A stretch of DNA of 64,000 bases from a phage (GCA_025611195.1 GCA_025611195.1_4718.1); one strand, 5' to 3'; shown: positions 1,711 to 50,923, counted from the stretch's first letter. Numbers and translations: made by a program. The notes: generated by a model not told the origin, from the letters alone.

Positions 1711-1721
1711 AGGTAATATAG
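1711..1721 (-). promoter_or_regulatory. early-promoter-like motif CTATATTACCT
   Basis: Plus strand reads AGGTAATATAG; minus-strand gene start at 1589. Confidence 0.45.
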
Positions 1722-1724
1722 ACC

Positions 1725-2525
1725 TCAACTTTTTTCCAATAATGCCGCAACGTTCCGCGCGAAACGAATCACCTTGTAATTGCGCGTTTGTGTAGCATCT
1801 TCTTCTCCGTCGCTATCTTCTTCGGACGGATCTTCCCACATGAAGTCTTGTTCGTCAGCTTTCTGGATATAGCGATATAGCTGCACCATACAGCGTGCGG
1901 TCGGGGAGATAGCACGAAGCTCATCTAATTCTTCATCGGTCAACAGAACGTTCGGTGAGCGCAGCGGTTCTGTTGTCGTATTACACAACAGACGAATGAG
2001 CAGATCAACACACGGAATAACAGAACCTGGTGATGCGATTTCTGGGTGTAACGTATAGCCCCAATACACGGTGTTAAAATACGTCAAAACAGCAGGTAAT
2101 GACGGATGTTCCATCGCGCGACCAATTTGTTGTCTCACGATAGATGCACGATCGCTCAACACATCGAAAGTAATCTGCTGTGGTTCCATAACCGCAAGTG
2201 AAATACCGTAAGCATCGGCCACGCCCAGGATTTCATGAAGGGTCGAGCGTTCTTCTTCGGTGGATATCGTTCCGATTGCTTTACGTCCCGCAAGGTCAAT
2301 CAGCATCGGTGAAACAGCTTCTTTAACCGCATTAAAAGAAGCCTGGTAAGCGTGTTTGTGGATATACAATGTCCACGCTAATGCGCGCTCAGCTGCGTGA
2401 AGCAGATCGACATAAGACTGTTCTTGATGGCATGGTCCATACACGCTCACAGCAAGCTTGGTGGCTTTCTCAGAAGCTTGCATAATAACATCCGGTGATT
2501 TAGGCATATCGCGTTCTTCTTGCAT
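1725..2525 (-). CDS. hypothetical protein (266 aa)
   Basis: Long ORF with acidic C-terminus; no motif recognised. Confidence 0.55.
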   Translation of the reverse strand: MQEERDMPKSPDVIMQASEKATKLAVSVYGPCHQEQSYVDLLHAAERALAWTLYIHKHAYQASFNAVKEAVSPMLIDLAGRKAIGTISTEEERSTLHEILGVADAYGISLAVMEPQQITFDVLSDRASIVRQQIGRAMEHPSLPAVLTYFNTVYWGYTLHPEIASPGSVIPCVDLLIRLLCNTTTEPLRSPNVLLTDEELDELRAISPTARCMVQLYRYIQKADEQDFMWEDPSEEDSDGEEDATQTRNYKVIRFARNVAALLEKS

Positions 2526-2628
2526 CTTTTAAATTCCTACTTAACAATAAAGTTCATATACGACGTATGTATCCGTAGAATAATGAGTTCTGGTAAGATC
2601 TTACATCAAAATGACGGCATAAAAAGTA

Positions 2629-2654
2629 CCTCCTTACCCACATGGGTAAGGAGG
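2629..2654 (-). terminator. intrinsic terminator
   Basis: 11-bp stem CCTCCTTACCC/GGGTAAGGAGG, loop ACAT, followed on minus strand by TACTTTTTATG. Confidence 0.55.
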
Positions 2655-2805
2655 CTCGTCCATCACGACGGAAGGACGTTATGTGACGCGGTGTCCATAA
2701 CGGCCCTGGTAGCAGGCATTAAAGATAACAAAAAGGATGTAAGTTGAGCTAAACCACCTAAATACGGTAACGATTACTTCCGTACACAATATAACGTAAC
2801 ATCTT

Positions 2806-3615
2806 TTACCATTGATTAAAGCTGCCCGCCTTAACGACATCACAGCGCAGATGGTTACGTAACTGATCCAGGAAGACGACCGGGCTATCACCAGACAACA
2901 TAGCCAGCGCGTGTTGACCGCCGGAACGAACAACGAGCTCGTCAACCATTGGTGCTGTGATTGGGAGATCGTACGCATCCATGATCGCTTTGGCTTCTTG
3001 TTCTACGTCTTTCTGAAACCCTTCCATCGTCGGAGAGTCATATTTGGTTGCAAACTCGATACCAGGCAAGTTGACGTAATCGTAAGTCATGACGCGAGTC
3101 ATAACACGGCGTCGCTCACGTTGCCAGATCTGAGGATCGGTTAACGCTCGAACAGAAAAACACACATTCACCAGCGGTGTTTCAAAATCCTTACGTAATG
3201 GATCACCGTACGGTCCGCAAGGAATAACATCACCCATCACCATCACGACGGGACGACCGCGACGATCGCGTCCAGCTTCTTCTAACCAAATCTTAGAAAA
3301 ACAATGGCTTACCTTCGTTTCTTCGATTCGTAATGCTCGCTGTAAAAAGCTGGTTGCATCCTGACCGATCTCTGGTTTAGGGTGACCGTATTCACCTTTC
3401 AATGAACGGTTACGTGCGTTTGTTTGCAGTAAACTGTTTTCCAGGAACAATGGTTTCGAACGCTCAAGCTCGTAATATTCTTCGGTATTGTTAAAGCAGT
3501 TAAATCCGCCGATAACACAGGTGTAGGCACCGTCAGCATTAGGACGGATAATACCTTTCTTATTCACACCAAGATAACTGGTGCAAACAAGATTACTAAT
3601 TGGTGGTTGCATCAT
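2806..3615 (-). CDS. hypothetical protein (269 aa)
   Basis: Long ORF; AAGGGG RBS upstream. Function not assignable from sequence. Confidence 0.55.
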   Translation of the reverse strand: MMQPPISNLVCTSYLGVNKKGIIRPNADGAYTCVIGGFNCFNNTEEYYELERSKPLFLENSLLQTNARNRSLKGEYGHPKPEIGQDATSFLQRALRIEETKVSHCFSKIWLEEAGRDRRGRPVVMVMGDVIPCGPYGDPLRKDFETPLVNVCFSVRALTDPQIWQRERRRVMTRVMTYDYVNLPGIEFATKYDSPTMEGFQKDVEQEAKAIMDAYDLPITAPMVDELVVRSGGQHALAMLSGDSPVVFLDQLRNHLRCDVVKAGSFNQW

Positions 3616-3694
3616 AACCCCTTTATAAGCAACTGAATGAAAAAAGCGTTACCTTCCCACGTTTACGTCAAGAAGGCGACGCGTAAGCGTTATA

Positions 3695-4426
3695 TCACCA
3701 TTCATACGATCCGGCGCACTGATGCCCCAATAGTACCAACGCGTCGTCTTTGGCCGCCAGATATTTCTCTAACGTTATCCGTGAAACAGACACATTAGAG
3801 AAATCCATCACACCTAAGCGATGATCGTAATGATTAATTTGCATCCGGTAATAACCTTTCTTTACCACCAGAAACTCACCTTGACGCAACCATAGCGGAA
3901 CGTTGTCAACCTCCGCATGGATATAAAACACCGGGCATTCTGTCGTAACAGAGTTTTCCTTTCCGTCGCTATCTGTAATCTTCCCTTTGGGAACAGCCGC
4001 GATAAAACATTCTCCGATACGCTCTGTTTGGTACCCGTTCGGATAACGCGGGTCATGAAATAACCAATGCTCATCGCTAATATCAACATCGGATAACAAC
4101 GTACGATGTGGGCGTAAGGCGATATCAAACGGAACACGATAGATAACGTACCCACCTAACCAATGGGATAAGTGACCACCGGAATAGTACTGCTTGATTG
4201 CGGTACTGTATCCGTATATGCAACCCATCAAACTACTGGATACACAGATCCTTGGAAACGACCCGTCTTCCATACGCAAGGTACGTTGAGGGATACGCGG
4301 CATCATCGTTTTCAGTTCGGTATCGGTGCTAATATGCAATAAACCGAAAGGAAGCGTTTTACTCGGCACCCACGCGCAACGTTCCATAATCGCTCTTGGG
4401 ACAATAGTCTCGATAGACGATAACAT
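3695..4426 (-). CDS. hypothetical protein (243 aa)
   Basis: ORF directly downstream of 4428..5138 in the same operon. Confidence 0.5.
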   Translation of the reverse strand: MLSSIETIVPRAIMERCAWVPSKTLPFGLLHISTDTELKTMMPRIPQRTLRMEDGSFPRICVSSSLMGCIYGYSTAIKQYYSGGHLSHWLGGYVIYRVPFDIALRPHRTLLSDVDISDEHWLFHDPRYPNGYQTERIGECFIAAVPKGKITDSDGKENSVTTECPVFYIHAEVDNVPLWLRQGEFLVVKKGYYRMQINHYDHRLGVMDFSNVSVSRITLEKYLAAKDDALVLLGHQCAGSYEW

Positions 4427-4427
4427 A

Positions 4428-5138
4428 TCACCCCCTCAGAATCGCTTCTGTTTCGCTGATCGTATCCGCAGGATAAACCAAACTACTATCGATTGCGTTA
4501 TTCACGTAACCACCCATTAAGTTGGTGATGGTGTTTGTACCACTATCGATAATGTTTCGTAATCCGATGTCGATGGCTTTTAAGGTACTGCGTTCTTCAT
4601 CCGAAAGCAGACGCCATGCCCGACGACGATCGTTGGGGTCACGCGTGGTGATAGACGCCAGAACAGAATAGATGCTGCTGTCTGCGTTCAGTTTAACGCC
4701 AGCCAATTTCGCTGACGTATACAACAACTGATATTTTTCTTTCTCAGTATACCACCATGGCACTTTACCGAGTGTATAGATCTCGTTATACATCAGCCAT
4801 GGGAAAGAGTTTCGCATCACGACGTCGGTCGACACCAACACCGTGTCACCAGGAAGAAATACGAACTCGTAAAACGGCTGACCATCCATGGTAATCTCAC
4901 GGATGTCAGACGGGTCGATATGGAGCTGGGTCAATGCGTGGCTGACACCATACTGACCATCAGGAAGAATAATCGGGCAGCACGCACAAACCCGGTTCTC
5001 ACTCCCGATGATAGATAAACCCAATCCCTCGTAACGGACGGGCGTCAGAATCGAACACCCGCCACGAGTAACAACAGATTTATCTTCTTGTATGTCCCAG
5101 TCCGCAAGCACCGCAGCACCGTTGCGGACAAGCGCCAT
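4428..5138 (-). CDS. hypothetical protein (236 aa)
   Basis: ORF tightly packed in minus-strand operon. Confidence 0.5.
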   Translation of the reverse strand: MALVRNGAAVLADWDIQEDKSVVTRGGCSILTPVRYEGLGLSIIGSENRVCACCPIILPDGQYGVSHALTQLHIDPSDIREITMDGQPFYEFVFLPGDTVLVSTDVVMRNSFPWLMYNEIYTLGKVPWWYTEKEKYQLLYTSAKLAGVKLNADSSIYSVLASITTRDPNDRRRAWRLLSDEERSTLKAIDIGLRNIIDSGTNTITNLMGGYVNNAIDSSLVYPADTISETEAILRG

Positions 5139-6662
5139 TTACACCTCGCTAATCTGGATAACGTAAAGCTGCTGGGCCACGTAGTCGGTGGTCAGATGCA
5201 TCGTTGCGATGGTCGCTGCTTCGAACACCGTGAGTTCAGGACGTTCACGCATAATCAAATCGATCTCGTCGATGAGACGGTTAACGCCTTGAGCGTCTTC
5301 ATGATGCATCGTTTTCACGTACAGCGTACGGAAATACTGCTGGAAGTTAGCTACGTCGGTATCGGTAAGGGTAGCAACTTCACCACGTACGATTTCCATA
5401 ACCTTCTTACGGGTATCTTCATCGAGGTCGACCGTAATCAGATCGGCGAACACACCCTGCAATGCCAGCGCGTATGCGCGTAAGCGGTTTGCGGCCTGCT
5501 GACTGGCTTTCATGTTGATGTAGTTACGGTAATGCTGCATGAAGCCTGCACCGTTAGCCAGCAGTTCATCTTTACTGATGAGTTCACGCTCTAACAGAAC
5601 GGCTGCGGTTAATGCTTCCGGTGAACCACCTTCTTGCAGATAACCCATGTAAACATCCGCGTTAACGAAAATCGTCATCGTTGACGCATCTTCAGCACGT
5701 TGAATCTGAGAAGCTGATGGCGCAGAAAGAATCAGTTCACCACGCTCCATACGCAGGATACGATCACGACCGACGCGTGCCATCCCGTTGATCGCCGCAG
5801 CGCGAGCTTGTTGCATTTTAGCGCGGTAGTTTTCAAGCATCATGTCGTTGCCGTCCTGGATATCTTCCAGCAGGTTAACGGCCCACATATAGCAGAGGAA
5901 TGCAGGAGTTGCCGCCGTGCGCGAACCGTGGAATGCAACGTTATCGCTATCCGGATACGTAATCAGATAAGCGGTGGTGTTCGAAGAAGGAGCGGAGCCA
6001 CGGAAGAAATAGTTATAGATATCTTCCAGTGACTGATCACTCATTCCTTCCGTTGCTTGCTGCACAAAGCGATCCAGGTTTTCATTACCAGTATACAGCA
6101 ACGTACGCAGCTTATCACCGGTGATAAACGCAAGCTTTCCGGTTGGGGTGAAATCGTTATTAATCGAAATCAAGCCGTTGAGATCGTAATCGCTAACTAA
6201 GGCCTGGTACTCTTCGGAGTTATAAAACTCAGGATAGTAACTCAGACTTACTGTCGGGATCAGTTTCGGTGCCAGGATGATCGAATCGATACGTTTTTCC
6301 AGCTCCGGGTACAGCGCACGGCATTTCGGCAGGATGGTGTTACGCGCCAACTCTTTGGCATACACCACTTTTTCCACCACGTCTTGAACTGCGGTCTGTA
6401 AAACTTCATCATGGATATAAACCTCGCGTTCGCTGGCCGGTGCTACAGCGCCATCTTCGGTTTCATCAAGTGTTTCAGCAACAACCATACGTTCAGCACT
6501 AAGCTGCACCAACGCATCCGCGTCTTCCGGTGGCTGGTTCCAATGCATGGTTTCACAAACCGCGGCTAACGGCGTGCCCGGAATGGCAGCGACGATTTGA
6601 TTACGTTTGATAAACCCTTCGACAATGGGTTCAACAGCATAAACAGTTTTATTGGTGATCAT
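5139..6662 (-). CDS. hypothetical protein (507 aa)
   Basis: Long ORF; start overlaps stop of 6662..6895 (TAATG). No RNAP beta motifs found. Confidence 0.55.
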   Translation of the reverse strand: MITNKTVYAVEPIVEGFIKRNQIVAAIPGTPLAAVCETMHWNQPPEDADALVQLSAERMVVAETLDETEDGAVAPASEREVYIHDEVLQTAVQDVVEKVVYAKELARNTILPKCRALYPELEKRIDSIILAPKLIPTVSLSYYPEFYNSEEYQALVSDYDLNGLISINNDFTPTGKLAFITGDKLRTLLYTGNENLDRFVQQATEGMSDQSLEDIYNYFFRGSAPSSNTTAYLITYPDSDNVAFHGSRTAATPAFLCYMWAVNLLEDIQDGNDMMLENYRAKMQQARAAAINGMARVGRDRILRMERGELILSAPSASQIQRAEDASTMTIFVNADVYMGYLQEGGSPEALTAAVLLERELISKDELLANGAGFMQHYRNYINMKASQQAANRLRAYALALQGVFADLITVDLDEDTRKKVMEIVRGEVATLTDTDVANFQQYFRTLYVKTMHHEDAQGVNRLIDEIDLIMRERPELTVFEAATIATMHLTTDYVAQQLYVIQISEV

Positions 6663-11344: not shown

Positions 11345-11347
11345 GGG

Positions 11348-12994
11348 TTAGGCTCCACGAGGTCCCGTTAAGTTGCGTAATAGGAACGCAACCGTATCGT
11401 AACCAATATCAATGTTGAATTTATTTTTACCACTTACCCAGAAAGCTCGCTTCTTGTGCGAGTTGGTAATTTCGTCAATAGCTTCCATGGAATAAAGAAC
11501 GTTAACCGAGACCGTATCACCATCAAAGTCCCCACCAAGTCCGGCAAGGTATGGGGCTGGGACAATCGTCGTTTCTACGAACGATGCATTAGGTAACCAG
11601 TCGGGGTATTCCCATGCGATAAATCGTTCATCCGTTATTGGTTCCCAGTTACTATCCAGTTCGGTTTTCGGTTTTGCGGCAACGGTTGTACGTGCGTAAC
11701 AGGTCAACGGAATGACGGATTGCATACCGGATACCGGATAACGTGTTACCATCGCAGCCAGGTTATTCCAGTATTTATATCCGGCGATGTACACTAATTC
11801 GGTATACGTGATAGGGTGAACATCCGCACCAGGCTTATTCAGCATCTCTGGAGGTAATTCACTCATGCCACGGAATAACCGAAACGAATCATTATTTACA
11901 TAGACGAGACAAAGATAACGTCCATTAACCATGATAGGTTCATTGCGCACACCTGGATCGCTTAAGGTGTTCAATAAACGTTCTATTCCGTCCCACGTTG
12001 TAAAGTCATCGATGGTGTCTGGATCAAGCGTGACGCGCTCACGTTCCATCGTTTCGGTATCGATAAGCTCAACTTCGGTAACATCACGGACAAATATTTC
12101 CTGCAAAATACCGGTACGTAACGCGTGTTGCGTCACGGGTAGGGCGGCTTTGCTCATCTGGTATAACCCTAACTGAACAGCTGTGCAAGAAGGCTGGTTA
12201 GGCGACCCTAGTACCTCCGTTGTGGGGTTAATTGCCGAAATAACGTTACGGGTTGAGTTCCAAACGCGACGTGAGCCGAACTTACCTTGGAAGATCCCTT
12301 TCTTACCCTGGAACATATCCAACAACAAAGCGTAGATATCGTTAAATGTTCTCTGTAAGCTCCAGCGTTGACCGTCGTAAACGGGATCGGAATAATCTTT
12401 TAATCCATCAGGGACGGTGTTAGAAATTGCAAGGAAACGACGATACAACTCCGTGATTTCTTGCTCGCTTTCATACCCGCCTTCTTTTACTTCTATTTCA
12501 CGTAAGCCCGCAGGTAAAACCAGTAAGTGACGGGTCATCGCTTTGAACATGTTCTCTTCGACAACTTTAATTCGTAGCTCTCGTTGAGCTGAACCCGTTG
12601 AAACGAACTTGATATCCGCGACGTGTTGTGCAAAGAACCCGTATCCTGTTTGTCCTGTTAACGCATCAGACGCAACGAAGTCGCGTTGTTCAGGATCCCA
12701 ACGAGCATACGCCTTTCCTGACATGATATCACCATAGAGGTGTTTTAGTCGAATGAGGCGGTCGTAAATGACAGGGTGCAGGATTTCAACTTTGCATTCA
12801 ATCACCGCAAATCGACGATCTCGATCTTCACTACCTGCACTACCAAAGATGGTGTAAGAATAGAAACCATCATCGTGGAAATTACCGGTGCTTGGGTCAC
12901 GAATGCTCATGCTCGTGATCTTGGGGAGAAAACGTAACTGCTGTTTATCGAGGTGCAAAATACTAATATTAAACGGCTCTCTGACTTTAGCCAT
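11348..12994 (-). CDS. RNA polymerase beta'-like subunit, N-terminal fragment with DFDGD catalytic motif
   Basis: C-terminal GGDFDGDTVSVNVLYSMEA matches beta' NADFDGDQMAVHVPLTLEA. Start placed at ATG 12994 (GAGGAG RBS) not ORF-track 13036. Confidence 0.6.
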   Translation of the reverse strand: MAKVREPFNISILHLDKQQLRFLPKITSMSIRDPSTGNFHDDGFYSYTIFGSAGSEDRDRRFAVIECKVEILHPVIYDRLIRLKHLYGDIMSGKAYARWDPEQRDFVASDALTGQTGYGFFAQHVADIKFVSTGSAQRELRIKVVEENMFKAMTRHLLVLPAGLREIEVKEGGYESEQEITELYRRFLAISNTVPDGLKDYSDPVYDGQRWSLQRTFNDIYALLLDMFQGKKGIFQGKFGSRRVWNSTRNVISAINPTTEVLGSPNQPSCTAVQLGLYQMSKAALPVTQHALRTGILQEIFVRDVTEVELIDTETMERERVTLDPDTIDDFTTWDGIERLLNTLSDPGVRNEPIMVNGRYLCLVYVNNDSFRLFRGMSELPPEMLNKPGADVHPITYTELVYIAGYKYWNNLAAMVTRYPVSGMQSVIPLTCYARTTVAAKPKTELDSNWEPITDERFIAWEYPDWLPNASFVETTIVPAPYLAGLGGDFDGDTVSVNVLYSMEAIDEITNSHKKRAFWVSGKNKFNIDIGYDTVAFLLRNLTGPRGA

Positions 12995-13239
12995 GGAGAC
13001 ACTCCTCTTTACCACCACCGGCTGCGGCGGTATCATCTGAACACACGAGAGACGTAATGGGTGACGCCATCACCCATCGCTTCCTTGCTTGAGGCGAGGA
13101 AGTTATTAGGTTACGTACCTGCCTGATTTTATCAGGTGGGCGATGTGTGAAGTTACGCTTCAACATTATCAATGCCGAAGGTAAGCTTCGTGCATCACGT
13201 TCCAACGTAACATGGGAACGTATCGAACTGGAGGTATAC

Positions 13240-16200
13240 ATGGTAGATAAAACCCGTGTTGAGGGTGATGATAATTGGGATAACTGGGATGATGACTTCT
13301 CCCTGGATCTCGATTTTAACGAACCCAAAGACGATCGTAAACCGATAACACGCTTTGCGGTAGGAGCGGTTAAAGGTGCTGCTGAGGATCTTACTTCCTA
13401 CGAAAGAATGAAGGAGATCGCCAGAAACGCATTGCCTAAGGGCTATAGCGACGGTATGGATCTTATTGATTCCGCCGTCGGATCCACGAAGGAACTATAC
13501 AATGAAGCCGTTCGTGACGTTCTTCCTAAGGTCCAAAGCTCAAAACGGTTAGCTGCACAACTGACCAAGAAATACCGTGCAAGCATGCCCGATTTCTCGA
13601 AGAAAATTCTTGAGCAATGGGAGCAAGAAGCCAAGGAAGAAGACGAACGTAAACAAGCTGAAGAAACTCTTCGTCAACGCATGGCGAGCGCGGGGGACGA
13701 TGAGATCGCCCGCAAGGTTGCCGAGGCATTAGGCGAATCAGCAAACCAAAGCGCAGATCAGTTCGCTGAACAGCAAGCGAAAGAAAGTATCCGTGACGAT
13801 ATCGCTGACAAACGGTACGCTGTAACCAACAAACAAATGAGTGCGATGCAAGAAGGCGTCGCCAAGATGGTTGGTTTCAACAATGAATTCGCTGCACGCT
13901 ACATGCGTAAAAGCCTGGAACTGAAATATCGTTCCTTAGCGATTCAACGTGCAAGTTTCGACCAGCATAAAAAGTTAGCCGAAGTCTATATCGGTTTATT
14001 ACAAAACATCCAGAAGAATACGGCTTTACCTGATGCGGCTAAAGCAAAAATGTCGGAAGAATTCCGTCGTAGTGCGTACCAACGTTTCTTTGGTAATGCG
14101 TTAGATGCGATGAGTTCTTTCGAGAACCGTTTCTTTGCTGATGTTAAGAAGAACCTTGCCACCAACGCATTAGGCGCTTTAAAAGGCGTCGTGTCTGGCG
14201 CAAACGATGCGTTATACGGTTTAAACGAAGCACGTGACTCGATGTCCATGATGGACGGGATGGGGTCAGAAGGCGATATTAAGGAAATGCAAGGAAAGAT
14301 GTTGGGTCAGTTCATTGGCTCAACTGTCGCACCATGGATGGCTAATAAAGGTAGGATGGCGTTACGCGATTTAGCAAAACGTCACCCCAATGCTAAATTC
14401 GCTAGCGCGTTAAAAGCCGTGGATCAAGGTGGTGAGGCTGCCGCATACACAACGCGTAATCTCGGTAAACTGCTCCAGGAAGATATTCGTAAGAACGAAT
14501 TCAATCTTAGCGATCCGTTTTACAAGCAATTGTTACGCGGTGCGGGGCGTTGGGCGTTCAACATGGACAGCGGACGTAACTTCCGTGTGATGAACGACAC
14601 CGCTGAAACATTGGCGGAACAAACGTCTTTCGACGGTTTAACCTACCGCAGTATCAATGAAGTTATTCCTGGCTTTCTTGCACGCATTCTGAAAAGCAGT
14701 GAGGGTATCCGCACCGGAAACAGCGATCCAGACTACGAGGTCTATGACGGCATCAGCGGGCAATTCGTGTCTCAGCGTACGCGTGAACAAAGCGTCAACG
14801 ACACACTGTTTAACAAACGTACATTTGGTTATTACGCCAGCCGTTTCAACGAGGTTATCTCGGTCATCGATCCCGATAAACAATTATCGGAAAAAGCCAG
14901 AAAGGCGCTGGCTAAGCAGTTGGCACGAGATAGCGACGCGAACATCGCATTCGACCCGGCTCGTTTTACGGATGAAAGCAACTTCGATCGTAGTATCGAT
15001 CGTGACGCTATTAAGGAACTTTCCGCGTACTTTCGTGACCGTTATGGTATTCGTGACGATATCAACGATAAAGGCGAACGTCATCAGGTCATTGGAAACC
15101 GCGGACAATATTACACGGAACGTAACCGAGCTGATCTTCGCTACGGTAATCTGAAATCTTTACAACCGGATATCCAGCGTAACCTTAACCTACTGAAACG
15201 TACTGGTGACGTCCAATATCTGGAACGTATCGGTATTGTGACGAGAAATAGCGACGGAAGCTACTCGGTTAATCACGATCGTTATTTCTCTGAAATTGAT
15301 CAATACATCGACCGACCAGAGTACGCTGACCGTGGCGATGTCAATACGCGATTAACCTCTCAGGAAACAAGAGCGCTGGCGCTGGGTTACCGTGACGCAA
15401 AACCATCAACAGGCGACGTCCAAAATGCAGGTCTGCCGAACATCGAACGTAAGGTTGCTGGAACAGTAACCATTGATGAAAACATCGGCTACGATAAATG
15501 GTGGAACGACACGGGTGTTATCACCACATCGCTTGAAGAACAGAATCGAGCATGGCAAGAACTCTATCTCGAAGCGCTGTCTGAAGCATCCGAACAACGT
15601 GTTGAAATGCTTACGTTACTGAAAGCCATTTCTGAGAAAGACTGGTCTAATAACGTTTCACTGGATGGCGAAGATGTACCTGAAGGTACGGCACCTATTT
15701 CCTTTATCGATCGCGCCAAACAAAAACTCGGTGCGCGTAACCTCTTTAAAGGCGGCCGTAATCTCCTCTGGAAAGGAATTAAAAATACCGCACGATTGGG
15801 TGTTAAAGGCGCACGTTGGGGTGCAGAACGTACATTAGGTAGTTTGGTAAATTCCGGCCGACGCATTATCAACTTCAACCGATTCGTGTTCGGTGCGTTA
15901 TCCAAAGTCGATCAGGTTCCGTTTGACATTTACGTTAAAGGGGAATCCCAACCACGCATACTGGCTGCCAAACTTCGTCAGGGGTTATACTTCGACGAAG
16001 CGACAGGAAAAGCCGTAAAACGAATGAAGGATATCAAAGGCCCACTCGTTGATGCAGATGGAAACATCGTAATCAGCAACGAGGATATCGAGAAAGGGTT
16101 GGTCACTCGCGCTGGTCGTGCCTTTGAGAATTCAGGACTTAAAGCGTGGGCGCATGAAGGTCTTAATGGAATAACGACGGTCTTAAGTCTGCCGCGGATG

Positions 16201-23218: not shown

Positions 23219-23256
23219 CACGTCCTCCTGAAAAAGAAAAAAGAAATACGGCATAA

Positions 23257-23284
23257 AGCCTACCCACACAATGGTGGGTAGGCT
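23257..23284 (-). terminator. intrinsic terminator
   Basis: Stem AGCCTACCCAC/GTGGGTAGGCT followed on minus strand by a T-rich tract. Confidence 0.55.
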
Positions 23285-23300: not shown

Positions 23301-23813
23301 TTAAACTTCTTCGTTTTCTGAACCTAATGATTCAGCATCTGGATCGTCAACAGGAATTGTTGCATCAAAATACCGTTTCGTGTGCGTGGTTGTATATCCT
23401 ACGCTATCTGTGATGGAAATCGTAAACGTGACTTCTCTTGCACGGATTAAGCGTAGTTTATTCATGAAGTTACGGAACGGCATCGATCCCCGATTCAACT
23501 CCTTAATGACGTTTCCTCGAATACTGGAAATGTCTTTATTCGTTTTATCAGGATGCCGTTTCTTCACATCACGCATATGTCGGGTAATATACGAATTGAG
23601 CTGATTTGCGCCGATCCCTCTCTCCGTATAAATCTGCAACAGGAACTCCGTAAGGAAATCCTGTCTCCCCGTAGGCGTCCAGAAATTGTTACCGTGATTG
23701 TAGTTAGTCGCTCGTCCTCGATTACTTTGAGGATTTTCATCATCGTTTTCGTCACAACGCTTAAGCGGATTAATGCGTGCTCGGAAAGAGACTTCATTAT
23801 ATTTATTTGTCAT
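23301..23813 (-). CDS. hypothetical protein (170 aa)
   Basis: Start ATG (MTNKYN) overlaps stop of upstream gene (ATGA). Confidence 0.5.
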   Translation of the reverse strand: MTNKYNEVSFRARINPLKRCDENDDENPQSNRGRATNYNHGNNFWTPTGRQDFLTEFLLQIYTERGIGANQLNSYITRHMRDVKKRHPDKTNKDISSIRGNVIKELNRGSMPFRNFMNKLRLIRAREVTFTISITDSVGYTTTHTKRYFDATIPVDDPDAESLGSENEEV

Positions 23814-24325
23814 AATACACCAGTGTACTGACTGAGTGCGAAGGTTAGGAGTTCGCAACAGTCTCTCGCTAGTTTCCTTGTTTTGCGTAATCCATAAGCC
23901 GCATCCAAATCGTCACGTTCCGCTAGCGCGTCTAACCACGTCGCAAGTATGCGTCCATACTCGATAACGTCGCGCATGAGAACGTCGAACTGGATAACAC
24001 GACCATCGGCATCAGCAAGCCAACGATTGAATGTGATTTGTGGTGCTAGTATTGCATATGTTCTCTCCTCTAATGCTATTATGTTTATGTTGCCTTCGTT
24101 ATCGAACGCTTGATGCCAACGGCGAAGGTCAAGCATCAACGACTCAGCGTCCATATACCACAACGGTAAATACGTTTTACGCGCAACGCGTATATCGTAG
24201 ATGTTGTGAACCCAGGACGTTGTTTTATAAAGCAACAAGAGTTCGTTTAACCGTTGCCTATCATCTTGAAACGTCTTCCTTTTATAACGTTGGAATGCAC
24301 GCCTCAAGAAAAAGCGATGTAACAT
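23810..24325 (-). CDS. hypothetical protein (171 aa), predicted early gene
   Basis: ORF about 80 nt downstream of a CTATATTACCT motif. Confidence 0.55.
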   Translation of the reverse strand: MLHRFFLRRAFQRYKRKTFQDDRQRLNELLLLYKTTSWVHNIYDIRVARKTYLPLWYMDAESLMLDLRRWHQAFDNEGNINIIALEERTYAILAPQITFNRWLADADGRVIQFDVLMRDVIEYGRILATWLDALAERDDLDAAYGLRKTRKLARDCCELLTFALSQYTGVL

Positions 24326-24406
24326 GGCATCACCTATGTATCATTCTTGCAGGCATCAATGAAACCATCACAAGAAGGTAACGTTATACGTCGCCTTCAT
24401 GACAGT

Positions 24407-24427
24407 CATCATGAAGGTAATATAGTC
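24407..24427 (-). promoter_or_regulatory. early-promoter-like motif (21-nt GACTATATTACCTTCATGATG)
   Basis: Identical 21-mer also at 50903..50923; minus-strand gene start at 24325. Confidence 0.5.
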
Positions 24428-24458: not shown

Positions 24459-25088
24459 ATGAGCGAATACGGTGTTGTCCCCGTAGATGATGAACCGCAA
24501 GAGGCACCCGATAAATTCGAGGTCCGTCTTGACGAAACCCGTAATATCCGTCAACGATTTATTCAACGTCTCGAAATGCTGTTAGATAGCGAATTCAAAG
24601 ATTTTGAGCGTAACCCCGGTGCAGATAATAAAGCCATTGTTGACGTCGAAAACGTCGACCGAATAGGTAAGCTGTTGTTGAAATCGTTGGGTGATAACGA
24701 TAAAGTCGACTTAACGTTAAAACGTATCAGTGCCGACCAGGCTATGAACGACAGCGCATTGAAAACAGCACAGGCCCTAACCGAAACCATGCTGCGCCGC
24801 TTAGGTCAGATGAATGAACATCCTCTCGCAGCAGGGGCTGTTTACGATGGCGAAGTCGTGAAGTCAGTTACGCCTGAAGAACGCGATCGTCGACTTGGTT
24901 TTGCATCGTTGGAAGAGTTTAATAGCAAGGAGTTTTCACCAGGCGTTCTCATACAGGGACGTGTTGAAGAAACCAGTGATGCTTTCTACGCTAGAATGGC
25001 TCAACTGACGGAGTCTGTTCGTGAGGAGGTGTCTCAGAAGATGGTTGCAGATCATCAGTCTTCGGAGGCGTCACACGAGGAGGAATAA
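24459..25088 (+). CDS. acidic hypothetical protein (209 aa)
   Basis: ACGGAG RBS 8 nt upstream of ATG; acidic, Glu-rich C-terminus. Overlaps convergent gene by about 98 bp. Confidence 0.5.
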   Translation: MSEYGVVPVDDEPQEAPDKFEVRLDETRNIRQRFIQRLEMLLDSEFKDFERNPGADNKAIVDVENVDRIGKLLLKSLGDNDKVDLTLKRISADQAMNDSALKTAQALTETMLRRLGQMNEHPLAAGAVYDGEVVKSVTPEERDRRLGFASLEEFNSKEFSPGVLIQGRVEETSDAFYARMAQLTESVREEVSQKMVADHQSSEASHEEE

Positions 25089-34974: not shown

Positions 34975-35006
34975 CCCTCCTCCTTCCCTTACGGGTTGGA
35001 GGAGGG
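34975..35006. terminator. family-A palindromic hairpin
   Basis: Stem CCCTCCTCC/GGAGGAGGG, loop TTCCCTTACGGGTT identical to 22122..22135. Confidence 0.5.
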
Positions 35007-35035
35007 TTATGCCGTCAAGCAAAAAAAAAATGATA

Positions 35036-36780: not shown

Positions 36781-36840
36781 TTAAAAACAACAAAAGAAAA
36801 AACGATATAAAGCAAGGTCCTCTGATATCAGAGGACCTTG
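36781..36840 (-). terminator. intrinsic terminator
   Basis: 28-bp perfect palindrome CAAGGTCCTCTGATATCAGAGGACCTTG (36813..36840) followed on minus strand by a long T-rich tract. Confidence 0.65.
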
Positions 36841-36846: not shown

Positions 36847-37503
36847 TTAGCTTGCAGCATCTTCATTCGTATCAGGTTTGCTTCCCCCTAACAAACCGTC
36901 AAACAGACCCGTATGTTTCAGGTAGAAGAGAGCGATAGCGCCCATCGCTGCTGCGCTCGTCGCCGTTAACGCAACCCCAGCACGATACTGCCATTTACGG
37001 TCAGGCTTTTGATCAAGCGCCATACGACGCATGTATTCAGCCTCTGCTTCATTCCGATGAATTTCGGATTCTGCCAGACGGGCTAAGGTATCGCGGTCCA
37101 GGTTATCATAACGTACGTTCATGGTGGTTTCCTCTTGTTTGGAAGTTGATTGCTTGGTGAATTCTTGATCAACAGTCGTTTCGGTTGGTTCAAACGGCTG
37201 GTTGTTCATTTTCTGATCTTGATTGGTCATGATAGACTCCTTCGATTTTTGAGACGAAATTGATTTAAACCATCGTGGATGGAGGTATTCGGTTTTACAT
37301 GTACAGTTAAGTTTCTCGTGCATGAAAGCGTAAAAACGTTTTGCGCCTACACGTAAGGCTTTCAGCATTATCCATCCACGAGCACTCAAACGGTGTAGCT
37401 GTTGTGGTATATCTAGTTTCCTAGCCAAGCGAAAGTATCTTTCAATCACTTCGATAGGAAACCATTGTTGTTCCACATCGGTGAGACTGAAAGTCTTATC
37501 CAT
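36847..37503 (-). CDS. hypothetical protein with C-terminal TM segment, predicted early gene
   Basis: Start placed at ATG 37503 (MDKTFSL); CTATATTACCT motif 30 nt upstream. C-terminal hydrophobic ALTATSAAAMGAIALFYL. Confidence 0.5.
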   Translation of the reverse strand: MDKTFSLTDVEQQWFPIEVIERYFRLARKLDIPQQLHRLSARGWIMLKALRVGAKRFYAFMHEKLNCTCKTEYLHPRWFKSISSQKSKESIMTNQDQKMNNQPFEPTETTVDQEFTKQSTSKQEETTMNVRYDNLDRDTLARLAESEIHRNEAEAEYMRRMALDQKPDRKWQYRAGVALTATSAAAMGAIALFYLKHTGLFDGLLGGSKPDTNEDAAS

Positions 37504-37532
37504 GATTGAAATCTCGCTGGCTTGCTTCACCT

Positions 37533-37543
37533 AGGTAATATAG
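37533..37543 (-). promoter_or_regulatory. early-promoter-like motif CTATATTACCT
   Basis: 30 nt upstream of ATG 37503. Confidence 0.45.
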
Positions 37544-38474: not shown

Positions 38475-38481
38475 TCATCGA

Positions 38482-38505
38482 GCCTGTCCTTCGGGGCAGG
38501 CTTTT
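38482..38505 (+). terminator. intrinsic terminator with UUCG tetraloop
   Basis: GCCTGTCC-TTCG-GGGCAGGC followed by TTTTAT, just after stop of 37653..38474. Confidence 0.65.
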
Positions 38506-38582
38506 ATGCTGCTAAATATCGGGAATAAGAATTAACAAAATAGGAAAATGGTGTGAATATAACACAAAGGAGGGAGATGATT

Positions 38583-46193: not shown

Positions 46194-46208
46194 ATTATAG
46201 TTTATTTA

Positions 46209-46646
46209 TTAACGCACTGCGTTCTGGATGATTTCTTTTCCGATCTTAACCAAAGCAGGTATCTGCACAGCGGTTGCGCCTCGATGACGAAACGCGGTCG
46301 TTAACGCGGTATCGATACTCACAGCACGTCCGTGGAGACGATCGAAATAGACTTGCGTGATTGCAGCAGCGTAATCCTTTCGCTGTTTCTTGGTTTGGTT
46401 TAATAGCGCCGCACTATGGCTAACGATGAAGTAAGCGATTAAGAAGAACGCCGCCGACCGCGAACCGGGTAGAAAACCTTGTCGCTTAGGAAGCATCTCA
46501 CAATCGCGAACAGTATTATCGTTCGCGAGCTCATCCATGTCAACGCAGCATAATTTTGCATAGGTGTGGAGATAGTGGGTAAAAGTTGAATTTAACATGT
46601 TTCTTTCCTCGATTACAATGAGTTCAATGTATAGCTTAAACGTCAC
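46209..46646 (-). CDS. hypothetical protein (145 aa)
   Basis: ORF downstream of family-B hairpin. Confidence 0.45.
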   Translation of the reverse strand: MTFKLYIELIVIEERNMLNSTFTHYLHTYAKLCCVDMDELANDNTVRDCEMLPKRQGFLPGSRSAAFFLIAYFIVSHSAALLNQTKKQRKDYAAAITQVYFDRLHGRAVSIDTALTTAFRHRGATAVQIPALVKIGKEIIQNAVR

Positions 46647-46704
46647 AGAACGACGTGTAGCGATTTGTTTTAATTTCTAAGGGGTTTCCTTATCTAAGAT
46701 TGAT

Positions 46705-47067
46705 TTAAAGCGTTCTGAAGAGTTCTGTATCGTTCTCGTCACGTAAACACGCTTCGTTCAACAATTCAGCTAACAACTTCGACCGAACTTCAACAAATGT
46801 CCTGAGGCGATGCTTCCATTCTAAACAGACGGTGTATGAACGATCTAACTTTTTGTGCTCGACGATAGATGCCGTGCAGTAGGTTTCGCGTTTATTCACA
46901 TCGTCCCAAACATCACGAATGATCGTCAAGCCTTTCTCAGTACATGTAAACGTTATAACGTAGTGATTGTTCGCTACTTCAACACGAACATCAGTAAATT
47001 CGTTTCGTAACGATGAGGTCTTAGTTAAACGATCAATAGCGAGCGATAAACCAACACGTTGTTGCAT
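46705..47067 (-). CDS. hypothetical protein (120 aa)
   Basis: ORF in operon. Confidence 0.45.
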   Translation of the reverse strand: MQQRVGLSLAIDRLTKTSSLRNEFTDVRVEVANNHYVITFTCTEKGLTIIRDVWDDVNKRETYCTASIVEHKKLDRSYTVCLEWKHRLRTFVEVRSKLLAELLNEACLRDENDTELFRTL

Positions 47068-47068
47068 A

Positions 47069-47494
47069 TCAGATCCCCTCTTTCAGAATCTCATTAAGGC
47101 CGTCAGTAATCCAGTCGAACTTCGTCTTAATCATAGCTGGGGTCAATCCGTATACTTCCCACACAAGCTGTGGTTTATGTGTTCCATCGTCCAAACAAAG
47201 CACATCGATTGAGAGCATCATACCGCCCGTCAGTTTCATGTTCTCACAACTACGAAGATATGCGGATTCTAGCAATACTTTCCCTAACGCGGTGCAAGCA
47301 AACGTTAACCGGGAAGAATACATGTACGATGAAGTTTTACAGTAGGTTGCTGATATCGGTTGAATATGTTTGCGGAGTTTGGCGTCTTCACGTAAAAGCA
47401 GTAACGTGCGATGTAAACGCGTATGCTCGGTAACCGATGGGCTATATTCACCGATACGCTCTTCGACTACTGATTTAGGCCATTTAATTTCCAT
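47069..47494 (-). CDS. hypothetical protein (141 aa), MEIK-start paralog
   Basis: Shares N-terminus MEIKWPKS and 14-nt DNA identity at the start with 47510..47953. Confidence 0.5.
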   Translation of the reverse strand: MEIKWPKSVVEERIGEYSPSVTEHTRLHRTLLLLREDAKLRKHIQPISATYCKTSSYMYSSRLTFACTALGKVLLESAYLRSCENMKLTGGMMLSIDVLCLDDGTHKPQLVWEVYGLTPAMIKTKFDWITDGLNEILKEGI

Positions 47495-47509
47495 GTTATC
47501 TTCCTCGTA

Positions 47510-47953
47510 TTAACACTGTGTTCCATTCGATAAGCGGGTGGTATCAAAACGATCCAGTTGGTGTACAATGCTATCAGCAACACGATGCAAATAGTGTATT
47601 TTGTCCATTCGTGAAATCGCAGAAATCGTCCAGCAAGCCTCTGACGTCCAATAGGTGCCGTCTTCACTAAGGCTAACGTTATAAACTAACTTCGTCATCA
47701 CATTTCTCGCCTTATGCTCAGCAGACCAGAATATGTTTTCTAACACATCCTTCCCCGTTTGTGAAAACACGAACCCAAGCTTCACGTCGAAGTCGGATGC
47801 TTCAAGATTAACGCAGTGAAGATGATTCTCTAACGGCGCAAAAGAGGCTAAACGTTCCAGCGCATGTTGCAGTGTGGGATGATCGAGCTTTTCGAGATCA
47901 TCCACAGGTTGTTCAGGTACAATCGCGATCGATTTACAGAATTTAATTTCCAT
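47510..47953 (-). CDS. hypothetical protein (147 aa), MEIK-start paralog
   Basis: N-terminus MEIKFCKS; AAGAGGAACC RBS; GGGGAC-N6-GTCCCC hairpin 37 nt upstream. Confidence 0.5.
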   Translation of the reverse strand: MEIKFCKSIAIVPEQPVDDLEKLDHPTLQHALERLASFAPLENHLHCVNLEASDFDVKLGFVFSQTGKDVLENIFWSAEHKARNVMTKLVYNVSLSEDGTYWTSEACWTISAISRMDKIHYLHRVADSIVHQLDRFDTTRLSNGTQC

Positions 47954-48065
47954 GGTAGGTTCCTCTTGATAGTGGTTGATGATAGTAACGGGGACGGCGA
48001 TGTCCCCTTGGTTTCTTATTGCCCCGCCCGAACCCGATGGGGTACAGGCGGGTGATGTTGATGCG

Positions 48066-48473
48066 TTATAGCGGCATCAGACGTTCTTTAAGTTGGGTTA
48101 ACTTATTTGCAACGATGTTCTCAACGCCGATCATCTTGTTCATGTTGTCGAGGGTATCCTGCCAGATGAAAATATCCACGGAACCGGTTCCGACTAACGC
48201 GTTCTCAGGACGATGGTCACGGGTCACGTAGCGTGGTCTCTGCGGGCAGGTTTGTAACTCGATCCAAAGCGCATCTAACGGACCACGGTCCGTGACACCT
48301 AAGGCGAAGAATTCACCTCGTACGACCAGAACATCATCAGCCGTCCTGACGCGGGTTGATCCTTCGTACACCAATTCCATCTTTGCTCGACAGGCTGGGT
48401 TCTCGTTCCACGCCTGGACGGCATCGGCAAGGGCTATTGACGTTGCGGTGGTGTTCGTTTGATCATGTTGCAT
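48066..48473 (-). CDS. hypothetical protein (135 aa)
   Basis: ORF. Confidence 0.45.
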   Translation of the reverse strand: MQHDQTNTTATSIALADAVQAWNENPACRAKMELVYEGSTRVRTADDVLVVRGEFFALGVTDRGPLDALWIELQTCPQRPRYVTRDHRPENALVGTGSVDIFIWQDTLDNMNKMIGVENIVANKLTQLKERLMPL

Positions 48474-48550
48474 TCTAAGCTCCTGTAACGCTATCTAAGC
48501 GTCGTTTTAAGTTAAGGTATAGTTTCCCTTCCTTGGGTTCGTTTATTGCG

Positions 48551-48826
48551 TTACACGGCTTTACAGCTTGCGTAAACCACAACTGTTCCGTTGTTGATTG
48601 CCTCAACAACATCCTGGGTCAGTTTGGTCGCGAGTTTATTATCCGCACTCGGTACGTAATAACCTTCCCCTGTTTCAGTGACTAGGCGATAACGTACTAA
48701 TCCTACCGCACGCTCGACGCGTATCACCTTTTCAAGTTTGTATTTGATGATCTTCGTCAGGCTGACGGCGTCTGATGCGTAGATTGCTTTATAAACCTTG
48801 TTCTTTGCTGTCGGTTTCATCAACAT
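48551..48826 (-). CDS. hypothetical protein (about 91 aa)
   Basis: Start placed at ATG 48826 (MLMKPTAK) with AAGGAAAA RBS; ORF-track start 48889 would overlap upstream gene. Confidence 0.4.
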   Translation of the reverse strand: MLMKPTAKNKVYKAIYASDAVSLTKIIKYKLEKVIRVERAVGLVRYRLVTETGEGYYVPSADNKLATKLTQDVVEAINNGTVVVYASCKAV

Positions 48827-48848
48827 GGTTTCTGTTTTCCTTGGTTTA

Positions 48849-49682
48849 TCACGATGCCAGGTCAGCGATATCCCAATGGGTATAACCAACCTCGCGGATG
48901 AGCTCTGCTGTTTCTTCGAACAGTGGGGTAGGGCTAATGACCGGTAACCATTTCCCCTCTCGGGTTATCTTGACTTCGACGGTCTGTAAGTTCGTGTTCC
49001 AACGAACATCATAAACCAGCGCATAGCCAAGAGGATGAACAAGTCCATCTTGGTTAAATGTCTCCAAAAGACCTCGTACGTCTTCTTCGTAGGATGTTTT
49101 CGACAAGACAGCACGTACTCGTCGCAGTCTCTTCGTGATAACCTTTCCCAGCTCGATGCTCTCCCAGCCTGTCATGACGCAAGGATTGTCATCACGACGA
49201 AGAGACCGAGAAATATAAATAGAATCGCTCGCGGTAAGGTGTACCCACCCAAGATCGCAGTATGCGACAGGTCGTGGTGATTCTCCTTCGATAACCGTCG
49301 GTTCATCCAACATCGCCACAACACCGCAGTCTGCGAACTCCGGCGATACTTCATCCAGCATCTTAATACGGCTTTCTTGGCCGGTATGGTCAGGATCAAC
49401 ATGCGCGTAGTAGTAATTAGGCTCTATCGCACGGTATTGCGCAATACGTCTACGGAAGTCAGGATCCTGCATTCCCAGCGGATGGTAATACGCAAGCTGT
49501 TGCTTTATACCATCCTTGATTACCAACAGAAGATCTTCGCGATCTGATGCGGGATCTTCCACCACGATGTATTTAACAATCGCTTTCAGGTTCTTAACGA
49601 TGTTATCCGGAAGTTTCTCGATATCTCGAGCATCGTAGACGCGGTTAACTACAGTGCTTACAAGGTGTTTTGATAGGCTCAT
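48849..49682 (-). CDS. hypothetical protein (277 aa), paralog of 50039..50821
   Basis: C-terminal VHPLGYALVYDVRWNTNLQTVEVKITREGKWLPVISP aligns with VHPLGFAWVSEVRYNPRKKRVEAKVLNERWLPVVQP in the other gene. Confidence 0.55.
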   Translation of the reverse strand: MSLSKHLVSTVVNRVYDARDIEKLPDNIVKNLKAIVKYIVVEDPASDREDLLLVIKDGIKQQLAYYHPLGMQDPDFRRRIAQYRAIEPNYYYAHVDPDHTGQESRIKMLDEVSPEFADCGVVAMLDEPTVIEGESPRPVAYCDLGWVHLTASDSIYISRSLRRDDNPCVMTGWESIELGKVITKRLRRVRAVLSKTSYEEDVRGLLETFNQDGLVHPLGYALVYDVRWNTNLQTVEVKITREGKWLPVISPTPLFEETAELIREVGYTHWDIADLAS

Positions 49683-49724
49683 CGATGATCTCTCTTTGTT
49701 ATTTCTACCGATAACTCGGCATAA

Positions 49725-49742
49725 GGGGACAATGATGTCCCC
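49725..49742 (-). terminator. GGGGAC-N6-GTCCCC hairpin
   Basis: GGGGAC-AATGAT-GTCCCC between stop of 49752 gene and start of 49682 gene; sibling at 47990..48007. Confidence 0.4.
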
Positions 49743-49751
49743 ATGTTCATG

Positions 49752-50042
49752 TTAACTCCCTCTGTGGCATGAAAACAGAGCGTCTAATTGCTCCCGTTGT
49801 TCTTTTAAGTATGCGGGAAGCTGGTCTTCCCGTACCGTTCCGATTTCCAACGTGATGTACCAGCGTTGTTCGGAAGCCTGCCATTGAAAACTGCTCTGTA
49901 ACCTCAGGATGTTGGGATCGTGTACCATGCTTGCGCTGTAACGGTTGAACCAATTCAGGTATTCTGCTTTCCCTTCCTCGTCGGCAACGTAACGCTGCAC
50001 GCTGTTCTTCCCTTTGTTCTCGTATCCTGTTGCACGTATCAT
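49752..50042 (-). CDS. hypothetical protein (about 96 aa)
   Basis: Frame chosen over overlapping Arg-rich frame 49747..50091. Start ATG 50042 overlaps upstream stop (ATGA). Confidence 0.45.
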   Translation of the reverse strand: MIRATGYENKGKNSVQRYVADEEGKAEYLNWFNRYSASMVHDPNILRLQSSFQWQASEQRWYITLEIGTVREDQLPAYLKEQREQLDALFSCHRGS

Positions 50043-50821
50043 GCGAACGTTTCTCCTGTAACGTGTTGTGGGCGTTGTAGCATGGTAGCATCCCATTGTA
50101 CGATCCGGCTCCGGCTTACCCGCATCATGATGGATTCATCGTCAAGCCCTGGTTGCACAACCGGTAACCAACGTTCGTTAAGCACCTTCGCTTCAACCCG
50201 TTTCTTGCGTGGGTTGTAACGCACCTCGCTAACCCAAGCGAATCCAAGCGGATGGACCACCCGTGGATAATACATGCGAAGCAATTGATGCATCCGATCC
50301 AGTACCTCCAGGTCAGCATCGGTCAGGTATGGTTTCACCATGGTAAGCTTTTTGGTGTAATACGTTCCGGTGGTATGATTGATCCAACCAGGAAGCACGT
50401 GATGGAACCCTACCTGTAATGGCGTATCCCCGTTCACCTTCAACCAACCGTATCGCCCTGTCGCACGTCCCTCATCGTAAGCAACTTGTGCAAGCTGATC
50501 GATGAACGCACGATCGGTGATCTCGATGCGTTCCACCCGTTCATCCAACGCACCGCGTACCACGAATCCGCTCGCGCTCATCCGCGCAGGATGCTGGCTG
50601 CGATGCGCGTACCAATTCTTGTTGCCGGTAAGCAGGTAAGGGTACGTGTGAGCACCCCGCCAAACAACCGTTCCGTTCGTCCCATCAACACAGTGTACAT
50701 ACATCCCATCTTGACCGTTGTTGTAGCATGCTACCTTCACGCATTCGTTTTGAACATCGCTCGGTAACGCCAGGTATTCACCTTCGGTAAACATGGTATC
50801 AAAAATGATTTCGTCGTTCAT
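50039..50821 (-). CDS. hypothetical protein (260 aa), paralog of 48849..49682; predicted early gene
   Basis: Paralogous C-terminal block; CTATATTACCT motif about 80 nt upstream. Confidence 0.55.
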   Translation of the reverse strand: MNDEIIFDTMFTEGEYLALPSDVQNECVKVACYNNGQDGMYVHCVDGTNGTVVWRGAHTYPYLLTGNKNWYAHRSQHPARMSASGFVVRGALDERVERIEITDRAFIDQLAQVAYDEGRATGRYGWLKVNGDTPLQVGFHHVLPGWINHTTGTYYTKKLTMVKPYLTDADLEVLDRMHQLLRMYYPRVVHPLGFAWVSEVRYNPRKKRVEAKVLNERWLPVVQPGLDDESIMMRVSRSRIVQWDATMLQRPQHVTGETFA

Positions 50822-50902
50822 CTAAAAAAGATCCTCTGTTTTTCACGTTAATTAAACAACGTATTGATTTCTATTTAACGCAATACGAACATTGTACGTA
50901 TG

Positions 50903-50923
50903 CATCATGAAGGTAATATAGTC
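50903..50923 (-). promoter_or_regulatory. early-promoter-like motif (21-nt GACTATATTACCTTCATGATG)
   Basis: About 80 nt upstream of ATG 50821, at the edge of the AT-rich non-coding region. Confidence 0.5.

Follow-up and report, generated by a model that had tools for sequence, protein, structure and literature searches.

A conserved element was found four times on the minus strand of GCA_025611195.1_4718.1, a 64,000-nucleotide stretch of phage DNA (GCA_025611195.1) that is referred to here, at its full length, as the window. The four sites are very probably early promoters that are read by the phage's virion RNA polymerase (vRNAP), a multisubunit enzyme. This assignment is supported by their strand-specific placement in intergenic gaps, by their match to the early promoters of the phiKZ group and by the presence of vRNAP genes, and agrees with a preceding interpretation made without database searches (the sequence-only reading), in which four early transcription units had been proposed. 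The sequences themselves show the motif, how exclusive it is, on which strand and where it lies, that relatives conserve it and that it matches the early promoters of the phiKZ group; from homology we infer recognition by the vRNAP, the early timing and the exact +1 of the four sites.

A 4-kb sample of the window was 95.4% identical to Escherichia phage vB_EcoM_Goslar (hereafter Goslar), a nucleus-forming jumbo phage (Chimalliviridae) that infects E. coli, and the entire window is collinear with Goslar positions 200227-237301 followed by 1-28220. The vRNAP of Goslar comprises five subunits (gp78, gp196, gp205, gp207 and gp210), all of which have been detected in virions, and homologs of four of the five (gp196, gp205, gp207 and gp210) are encoded in the window. 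We assign the window to a phiKZ-like (Chimalliviridae) phage with encoded virion RNA polymerase subunits.

Occurrence of the motif in the window and in Goslar

The 11-mer AGGTAATATAG (plus-strand reading; CTATATTACCT on the minus strand) is present four times in the window, at 1711-1721, 24415-24425, 37533-37543 and 50911-50921 (sites 1 to 4), in identical orientation at all four, whereas 0.03 copies are expected and none of 100 shuffled sequences reached four. The sequence-only reading had reported the motif at these places; its coordinates for sites 2 and 4, 24407..24427 and 50903..50923, are those of the 21-mer CATCATGAAGGTAATATAGTC and not of the 11-mer. This 21-mer, which both sites had been said to share exactly, occurs in exactly two copies in the window, and a third was not found there even when three mismatches were allowed. 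The minus-strand gene starts described to the left of each site were also recovered, with ATGs at 1589, 24325, 37503 and 50821 and coordinate differences between ATG and 11-mer of 122, 90, 30 and 90 for sites 1 to 4, respectively. Both 21-mers do lie 82 nucleotides from their ATG, as had been pointed out, but a meaning of the equal spacing was rejected because it is not conserved in Goslar, where the leader at the site-4 ortholog measures 82 instead of 85 nucleotides; the equality is probably incidental.

On its own, the 8-mer TATATTAC is only mildly enriched in the window (five copies versus 1.85 expected), and the fifth copy, at 23584-23591 on the minus strand, lies within a coding region and lacks the flanking consensus. 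With a 39-nucleotide weight matrix, the four sites scored 41.9-49.6 bits, the rest of the window at most 6 bits and shuffled sequences at most 12.2 bits. Since no other position scores above 6 bits with this matrix, the four sites are the complete set in the window.

A scan of the whole Goslar genome with the 39-nucleotide matrix returned 14 sites of at least 30.8 bits, the next best position reaching 11.5 bits. All 14 are located on the minus (gene) strand, and each precedes a gene of that strand. Two of the 14 cores match CTATATTACCT exactly, ten have one T/C difference, and the cores at 43257 and 151625 have two and three differences, respectively; the 12 sites with at most one mismatch to the 11-mer, all on the minus strand, share much longer flanks. 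Goslar gene positions were taken from the RefSeq annotation; a crude gene caller had put spurious open reading frames (ORFs) over a few sites. The RefSeq record places 13 of the 14 sites in gaps separating coding sequences, where the predicted leaders measure 25-152 nucleotides, and the fourteenth inside gp047, a doubtful ORF of 62 amino acids (aa). In this ORF (Goslar 49584-49772), which has an ortholog at locus L013, the early promoter core is found at 49723. About 70 nucleotides downstream of this core there is an ATG preceded by GAGGA, and this suggests that gp047 has been annotated with a start too far upstream.

Among the genes preceded by a Goslar site are gp246, which is the nuclear-shell gene chmA, and gp165, as would be expected for early promoters; in the window the motif precedes only genes of unknown function. 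Although annotated as 'RNA polymerase beta subunit', gp165 is not one of the five virion subunits and was therefore taken to be a non-virion polymerase subunit. In an unbiased count of 7-mers in the Goslar upstream regions, TATATTA, CTATATT and ATATTAC ranked second to fourth overall. Beyond Goslar, the degenerate pattern TTTCA-N4-TATATTAC-N4-GTGA was detected at more than 120 IMG/VR loci, most of them grouped as several on one contig of 200-300 kb. Scanning with strand and position, as the sequence-only reading had advised, found the motif to be strand-specific and placed in intergenic gaps in the window as well as in Goslar; a motif equally frequent in coding regions or randomly oriented, which had been named there as speaking against early units, was not seen.

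Architecture of the element and the predicted transcription start

The functional unit is an element of ~39 nucleotides that extends beyond the 11-mer. The 11-mer forms the core of this element (-35 to +4), which carries three conserved blocks plus a start signal. The block near -30 is TAAT(C/A)CA or an A-run (TATTGAAAAAA), the block near -20 (-23 to -16) is TTTCACGG, TTTCAGGG or a weaker variant, and the core at -15 to -5 reads CTA(T/C)ATTAC(C/T)T, followed by two variable bases and (G/A)TGA. The G of this RTGA element, located 6 nucleotides after TATATTAC, is the predicted +1, because the geometry of known early promoters (phiKZ, AR9) places the start there. The four promoters of the window with their predicted starts are as follows:

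1703..1741, minus strand: site 1 promoter, TATTGGAAAAAAGTTGAGGTCTATATTACCTAACTGATA; core 1711-1721; predicted +1 G at 1706; A-run subtype; 41.9 bits
24407..24445, minus strand: site 2 promoter, TATTGAAAAAAATAACAGGACTATATTACCTTCATGATG; core 24415-24425; predicted +1 G at 24410; 42.7 bits
37525..37563, minus strand: site 3 promoter, TACTCCAACATTTTTCACGGCTATATTACCTAGGTGAAG; core 37533-37543; predicted +1 G at 37528; TTTCACGG subtype; 48.9 bits
50903..50941, minus strand: site 4 promoter, TAATGCAAATCCTTTCACGACTATATTACCTTCATGATG; core 50911-50921; predicted +1 G at 50906; 49.6 bits

The TTTCACG type is represented by sites 3 and 4 and the A-run type by sites 1 and 2, and the Goslar chmA promoter combines both features. 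All 18 cores (four from the window and 14 from Goslar) conform to TA(T/C)AT(T/A)AC, and the G at 6 nucleotides after the core is kept in 18 of 18 sites, as part of TGA in 16 and of TGG and GGA in the other two. The promoter of site 1 is identical in Goslar and in two IMG/VR relatives. Across four Goslar-like genomes the promoters are invariant except for C/T substitutions at core positions that are variable between the Goslar sites as well. For site 3, the footprint across relatives is invariant from about -27 to -7 and diverges upstream of about -30.

Weighing the promoter assignment

According to the proposed mechanism, the vRNAP, which is packaged in the capsid and injected together with the DNA, would recognise the ~39-nucleotide elements on the minus strand, from which transcription would proceed leftward, starting at 1706, 24410, 37528 and 50906. 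The resulting units would comprise apparently single genes closed by a hairpin at sites 1 and 3, two genes at site 2 and about ten genes at site 4. The genes of these units all encode small proteins of unknown function, as is typical for early genes.

Several observations weigh against this assignment. In the only published note on the start of the Goslar chmA transcript, the legend of Extended Data Fig. 4 (10.1101/2023.09.20.558163), the displayed sequence begins 91 nucleotides upstream of the ATG, whereas the predicted chmA +1 lies at 66 nucleotides, a possible conflict that the legend alone leaves ambiguous. In Goslar, 175 of 249 genes were above a threshold of >1000 reads at 5 min (10.1101/2023.09.20.558163), and 14 promoters are few for 175 genes expressed at this time, which implies either extensive read-through or early start signals of another kind. 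No function is assigned to the genes downstream of the window sites, which hence provide no independent cue for timing, and ATTAC is found in the putative phiKZ middle motif AAAATTACC too. Finally, a sigma-70-like match (ATGACA-16-TATAGT, 10/12) on the plus strand at 24399-24426 overlaps site 2; it points toward the divergent gene 24459-25088, and the regional count of such matches is at chance level.

It appears improbable that the element is a promoter of the middle or late class for a second, non-virion phage polymerase, or that it is used by both polymerases. Its core does share ATTAC and TAC(C/T) with the phiKZ middle motif AAAATTACC and with the TACT motif that follows an A-rich repeat, A-runs are present upstream at sites 1 and 2, and phiKZ chmA has both early and middle start sites. 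However, 18 of 18 cores resemble the phiKZ early TATATTAC and not AAAATTAC, and while the phiKZ middle motif is located at about -22 to -24 and lacks TATA, the conserved G lies here 6 nucleotides after the core, as it does in early promoters of phiKZ and AR9. Nor is the late signal TATG(+1) formed, since the four predicted starts read CTGA, ATGA, GTGA and ATGA and are preceded by A, C, G and C, respectively. In addition, the motif precedes gp165, which, if it is a non-virion subunit, must be made before the non-virion polymerase exists.

A role outside transcription initiation, as binding site of a regulator, as recombination or packaging signal or as remnant of a small mobile repeat, is considered very unlikely. 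Recombination does act at one promoter, where a 43-nucleotide element with a 14-nucleotide direct repeat is present or absent among relatives, and palindromes overlap some of the sites. This indel, which is located at the site-4 ortholog, nevertheless affects the leader only and not the motif. Moreover, the orientation relative to the downstream gene is fixed in 18 of 18 sites, and 17 of them are situated 25-152 nucleotides upstream of a start codon and past the end of the preceding gene, the eighteenth lying in the 62-aa ORF with a probably misplaced start. Homology to motifs with experimentally mapped starts in phiKZ, 201phi2-1 and AR9 likewise argues for promoters. Ordinary host sigma-70 promoters with TATATT as the -10 box are hardly credible. 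TATATT does resemble TATAAT, and TTGAAA or TTGGAA is found upstream at sites 1 and 2, but the spacer between TTGAAA and TATATT is 13 nucleotides long versus 16-18 for sigma-70 and a sigma-70 scan called none of the four sites on the motif strand, with totals at or below chance.

Stem-loops at the predicted start and the leader cassette of site 2

Within the preferred assignment as vRNAP early promoters, the transcribed side of the sites shows a further feature, a stem-loop at the predicted start. The first 45 transcribed bases are more structured than expected from their composition; in Goslar, z was below -2 at 7 of the 14 sites, compared with 18 of 300 random segments (Mann-Whitney p = 1.8e-4). 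Among 98 distinct IMG/VR promoters the first paired base coincided with the predicted +1 in 51, versus 24.9 +/- 4.4 after shuffling, and a perfect inverted repeat of at least 6 nucleotides spanning +1 was present in 27 of the 98, where 3.8 were expected. In the window, the following elements were identified:

50877..50906, minus strand: site-4 stem-loop, transcript +1 to +30, 12 pairs
24365..24417, minus strand: palindrome and duplication in the site-2 leader; 5' arm CCTTCATGA at 24417-24409 (-7 to +2), loop TGACTG
24402-24394, minus strand: continuation of the site-2 palindrome; 3' arm TCATGAAGG, then spacer CGACGTATAACG
24381-24365, minus strand: second partial copy TTACCTTCTTGTGATGG at site 2, a partial repeat of TTACCTnnnTGATG

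Comparison of the site-4 stem in four Goslar-like genomes revealed compensatory changes in 2 of the 12 pairs, wobble-compatible changes in another 2 of 12 and no broken pair. The conservation of this hairpin supports the predicted start, and the data suggest that the 5' stem-loop may have a function. Conceivable roles are to shield the mRNA at its 5' end, contribute to export from the early infection vesicle or aid promoter opening.

At site 2, the palindrome uses the promoter from -7 to +2 as one of its arms and is followed by a GCGACG..TAA..CG spacer and the second partial copy of the start region. The possibility that this second copy is itself a promoter was rejected, because the weight matrix gives it no score and its core is disrupted. 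A homologous 43-nucleotide element, flanked by the 14-nucleotide direct repeat TTACCTTCATGATG, is found as an insertion at the ortholog of site 4 in IMGVR_UViG_3300011560_000001 (~3045-3120), and a similarly built element is located at another promoter of the same genome. The cassette was also noted at an early promoter at locus L019 (~4371-4450). The arms of the cassette hairpin co-vary with the variable bases of the promoter. The distribution of the 43-nucleotide element indicates exchange between promoters, and recombination between promoters is probably also behind the 21-mer (-17 to +4) that sites 2 and 4 have in common.

A broader proposal is offered tentatively, and we regard it as possible although doubtful: the promoter would go beyond a linear motif, the +1 stem-loop would be a conserved and selected part of vRNAP early units across nucleus-forming phages, and the hairpin and duplication cassette of site 2 would act as a mobile module, carried from one early promoter to another by recombination. 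In the searched literature, no description of the +1 stem-loop or of a mobile leader cassette was found, and the 5' hairpin together with the movable leader cassette might be the sole new parts of the present analysis.

Proposed early units and neighbouring features

The genes placed downstream of the four promoters, and the hairpins associated with them, are listed below.

1110..1589, minus strand: site-1 gene, 159 aa, homolog of Goslar gp214, 117-nucleotide leader; PHROG 9746 (unknown function), no Pfam match
1049..1079, minus strand: terminator-like hairpin of 14 pairs directly after the site-1 gene
23301..24325, minus strand: site-2 unit with the gp200 homolog (23810-24325, 171 aa, 85-nucleotide leader) and the gp201 homolog (23301-23813)
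23251..23282, minus strand: hairpin CCTACCCAC-cattgt-GTGGGTAGG, then TTTATGC, after the site-2 unit
36847..37503, minus strand: site-3 gene, 218 aa, homolog of Goslar gp004, 25-nucleotide leader
36813..36840, minus strand: terminator-like hairpin of 12 pairs adjoining the site-3 gene; matches the terminator annotated in Goslar at 1841-1862
46209..50821, minus strand: site-4 operon of about ten small genes in one orientation, beginning with that at 50039-50821 (260 aa, 85-nucleotide leader)

The hairpin at 1049..1079 suggests that the early unit of site 1 is a single gene. In the site-2 unit the gp200 and gp201 homologs overlap start to stop by ATGA (translationally coupled), and the hairpin at 23251..23282 probably ends this unit, while the TTTATGC behind it is a candidate late-type (TATG-like) start for the following gene. 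For eight proteins downstream of the sites no Pfam match was obtained, and their few PHROG matches were all to families of unknown function.

Within the site-4 operon, a 946-bp segment (window 48843-49788) is found in place of 70 bp of Goslar. It carries the gene of a 277-aa protein (48849-49682) that is absent from Goslar, and this gene is classed as a putative strain-specific early accessory gene because the segment replaces Goslar sequence and the protein matches nothing in Pfam or PHROG. Immediately upstream of site 4 lies a gene-free, AT-rich stretch of 780 bp (50822-51602) with a GC content of 24-35% versus ~47% elsewhere. It holds the only three exact copies of ACAAGATAAC in the window as well as further near-copies, and no tRNA, Rfam match or credible ORF was detected in it. 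A corresponding gene-free gap is present in Goslar at 14971-15826. The stretch could be an origin-like or regulator-binding region or the locus of a non-coding RNA.

A GC-rich hairpin immediately followed by TTTATG(C/T) was observed behind the end of a gene and ahead of the following one at 2617-2655, 23251-23282, ~38480-38509 (plus strand) and 51552-51592, and TTTATGC occurs in 10 Goslar upstream regions versus 1.54 expected. This combination, which resembles the phiKZ late signal TATG(+1) fused to a terminator, is a candidate for a late promoter class.

Two further differences from the Goslar record were noted. In Goslar, a 2045-bp insert (211754-213798) consisting of a group I intron and gp206, for which the record notes weak similarity to phiKZ ORF179, lies within a gene for a virion RNA polymerase beta subunit. 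The insert is absent at the window junction 11528, and the window therefore has an uninterrupted ORF of 562 aa at 11348-13036. In addition, window positions 34982-35030 pass straight across both ends of the Goslar record, with ~49 bp aligning to both, and those ends are therefore not true genome ends in this relative, as would fit an assembly that is circularly permuted or was opened at an arbitrary point. Scans of the window for tRNAs and Rfam families gave no matches.

Significance and comparison with known early promoters

The analysis provides a map of early units for the Goslar type, today the principal E. coli model of nucleus-forming phages. It covers four units in the window and fourteen in Goslar and gives a predicted start for each. 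Such a map can be used for promoter choice in phage engineering, for reading the published Goslar RNA-seq data and for corrections of annotation such as the gp047 start. How such phages are understood to be transcribed is left unchanged.

A description of Goslar promoters was not found in the searched literature. A motif of this kind, centred near -10, lies upstream of early operons in every jumbo phage that encodes an RNA polymerase (PMC7598289). The early consensus of AR9 is AAATATATATTAT-(6N)-G(+1) (PMC5312081). AR9 shares with the Goslar-type sites an AT-rich core of the TATATTA type, the distance of 6 nucleotides to the starting G and an injected multisubunit polymerase, but it does not form a nucleus, its DNA contains uracil, and the TTTCACGG and ACCT blocks are lacking.

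In phage N4, early genes are likewise transcribed by an injected virion polymerase, and palindromes are found at some of the Goslar-type sites. The N4 virion RNA polymerase, however, is a single-subunit enzyme with a DNA hairpin upstream of the start as its recognition element, whereas the Goslar-type palindromes are situated at or after +1 and occur at only about half of the sites, the conserved element being linear sequence. An N4-type conserved inverted repeat was not detected within -35 to -8; the palindromes begin at about -7 to +2, extend downstream and are confined to a subset of sites.

The published consensus strings for the predicted or mapped early promoters of 201phi2-1, EL, OBP and N1M2, including TTAWTAVAA_HYWTTTRARR_BTATATTACDWHDGTG of 201phi2-1, and that of phiKZ match the Goslar-type motif (PMC7058600), in line with the comparison with phiKZ-group promoters that had been suggested by the sequence-only reading. 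Measured from mapped starts, the conservation of the 201phi2-1 early promoters lies at -10, -20 and -30 (PMC11512511). The layout of -30, -20 and -10 blocks with GTG at the start corresponds nearly position for position to the Goslar consensus in 201phi2-1, EL, OBP and N1M2, and CTACATTA is used by EL too. These phages differ by other bases in the -30 and -20 blocks and belong to other genera with other hosts.

For phiKZ, TATATTAC is listed as promoter (PMC7058600 Table 2), so that the consensus given in the sequence-only reading was correct. In phiKZ 28-32 early promoters have been mapped; their -10 box is extended, and a T-rich block lies upstream of -19. Within phiKZ bases 1-50000 we found seven copies of TATATTAC, each of them on the gene strand and in a gap that precedes a gene; PHIKZ054, the nuclear-shell gene, is one of the genes so preceded. 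These copies have TTTAAACAG or TTTGAGAT upstream (a TTT-A-AG block) and TGA at the same spacing as in Goslar. The chmA promoters of both phages align over ~35 nucleotides (phiKZ TGAAAAAAATTTGAGATTTATATTACTAAATTGAAT, Goslar TGAAAAAAATTTCAGGGTTATATTACCTAGGTGAAT). Common to both are thus the identical 8-mer core, TGA 5 nucleotides after it, the strand and intergenic placement and the presence of the element before chmA. In contrast to phiKZ, the Goslar-type sites accept C at the fourth core position (CTACATTAC), add a conserved C before the core and CCT or CTT after it, and have TTTCACGG instead of TTTAAACAG as the -20 block. The two phages also differ in the number of sites (~30 versus 14 in Goslar), in host (Pseudomonas versus E. 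coli) and in that starts are mapped in phiKZ and predicted in Goslar. The Goslar-like sites are to be placed in the already known vRNAP early promoter family of the phiKZ group, a promoter that is strongly conserved between Pseudomonas and E. coli phages.

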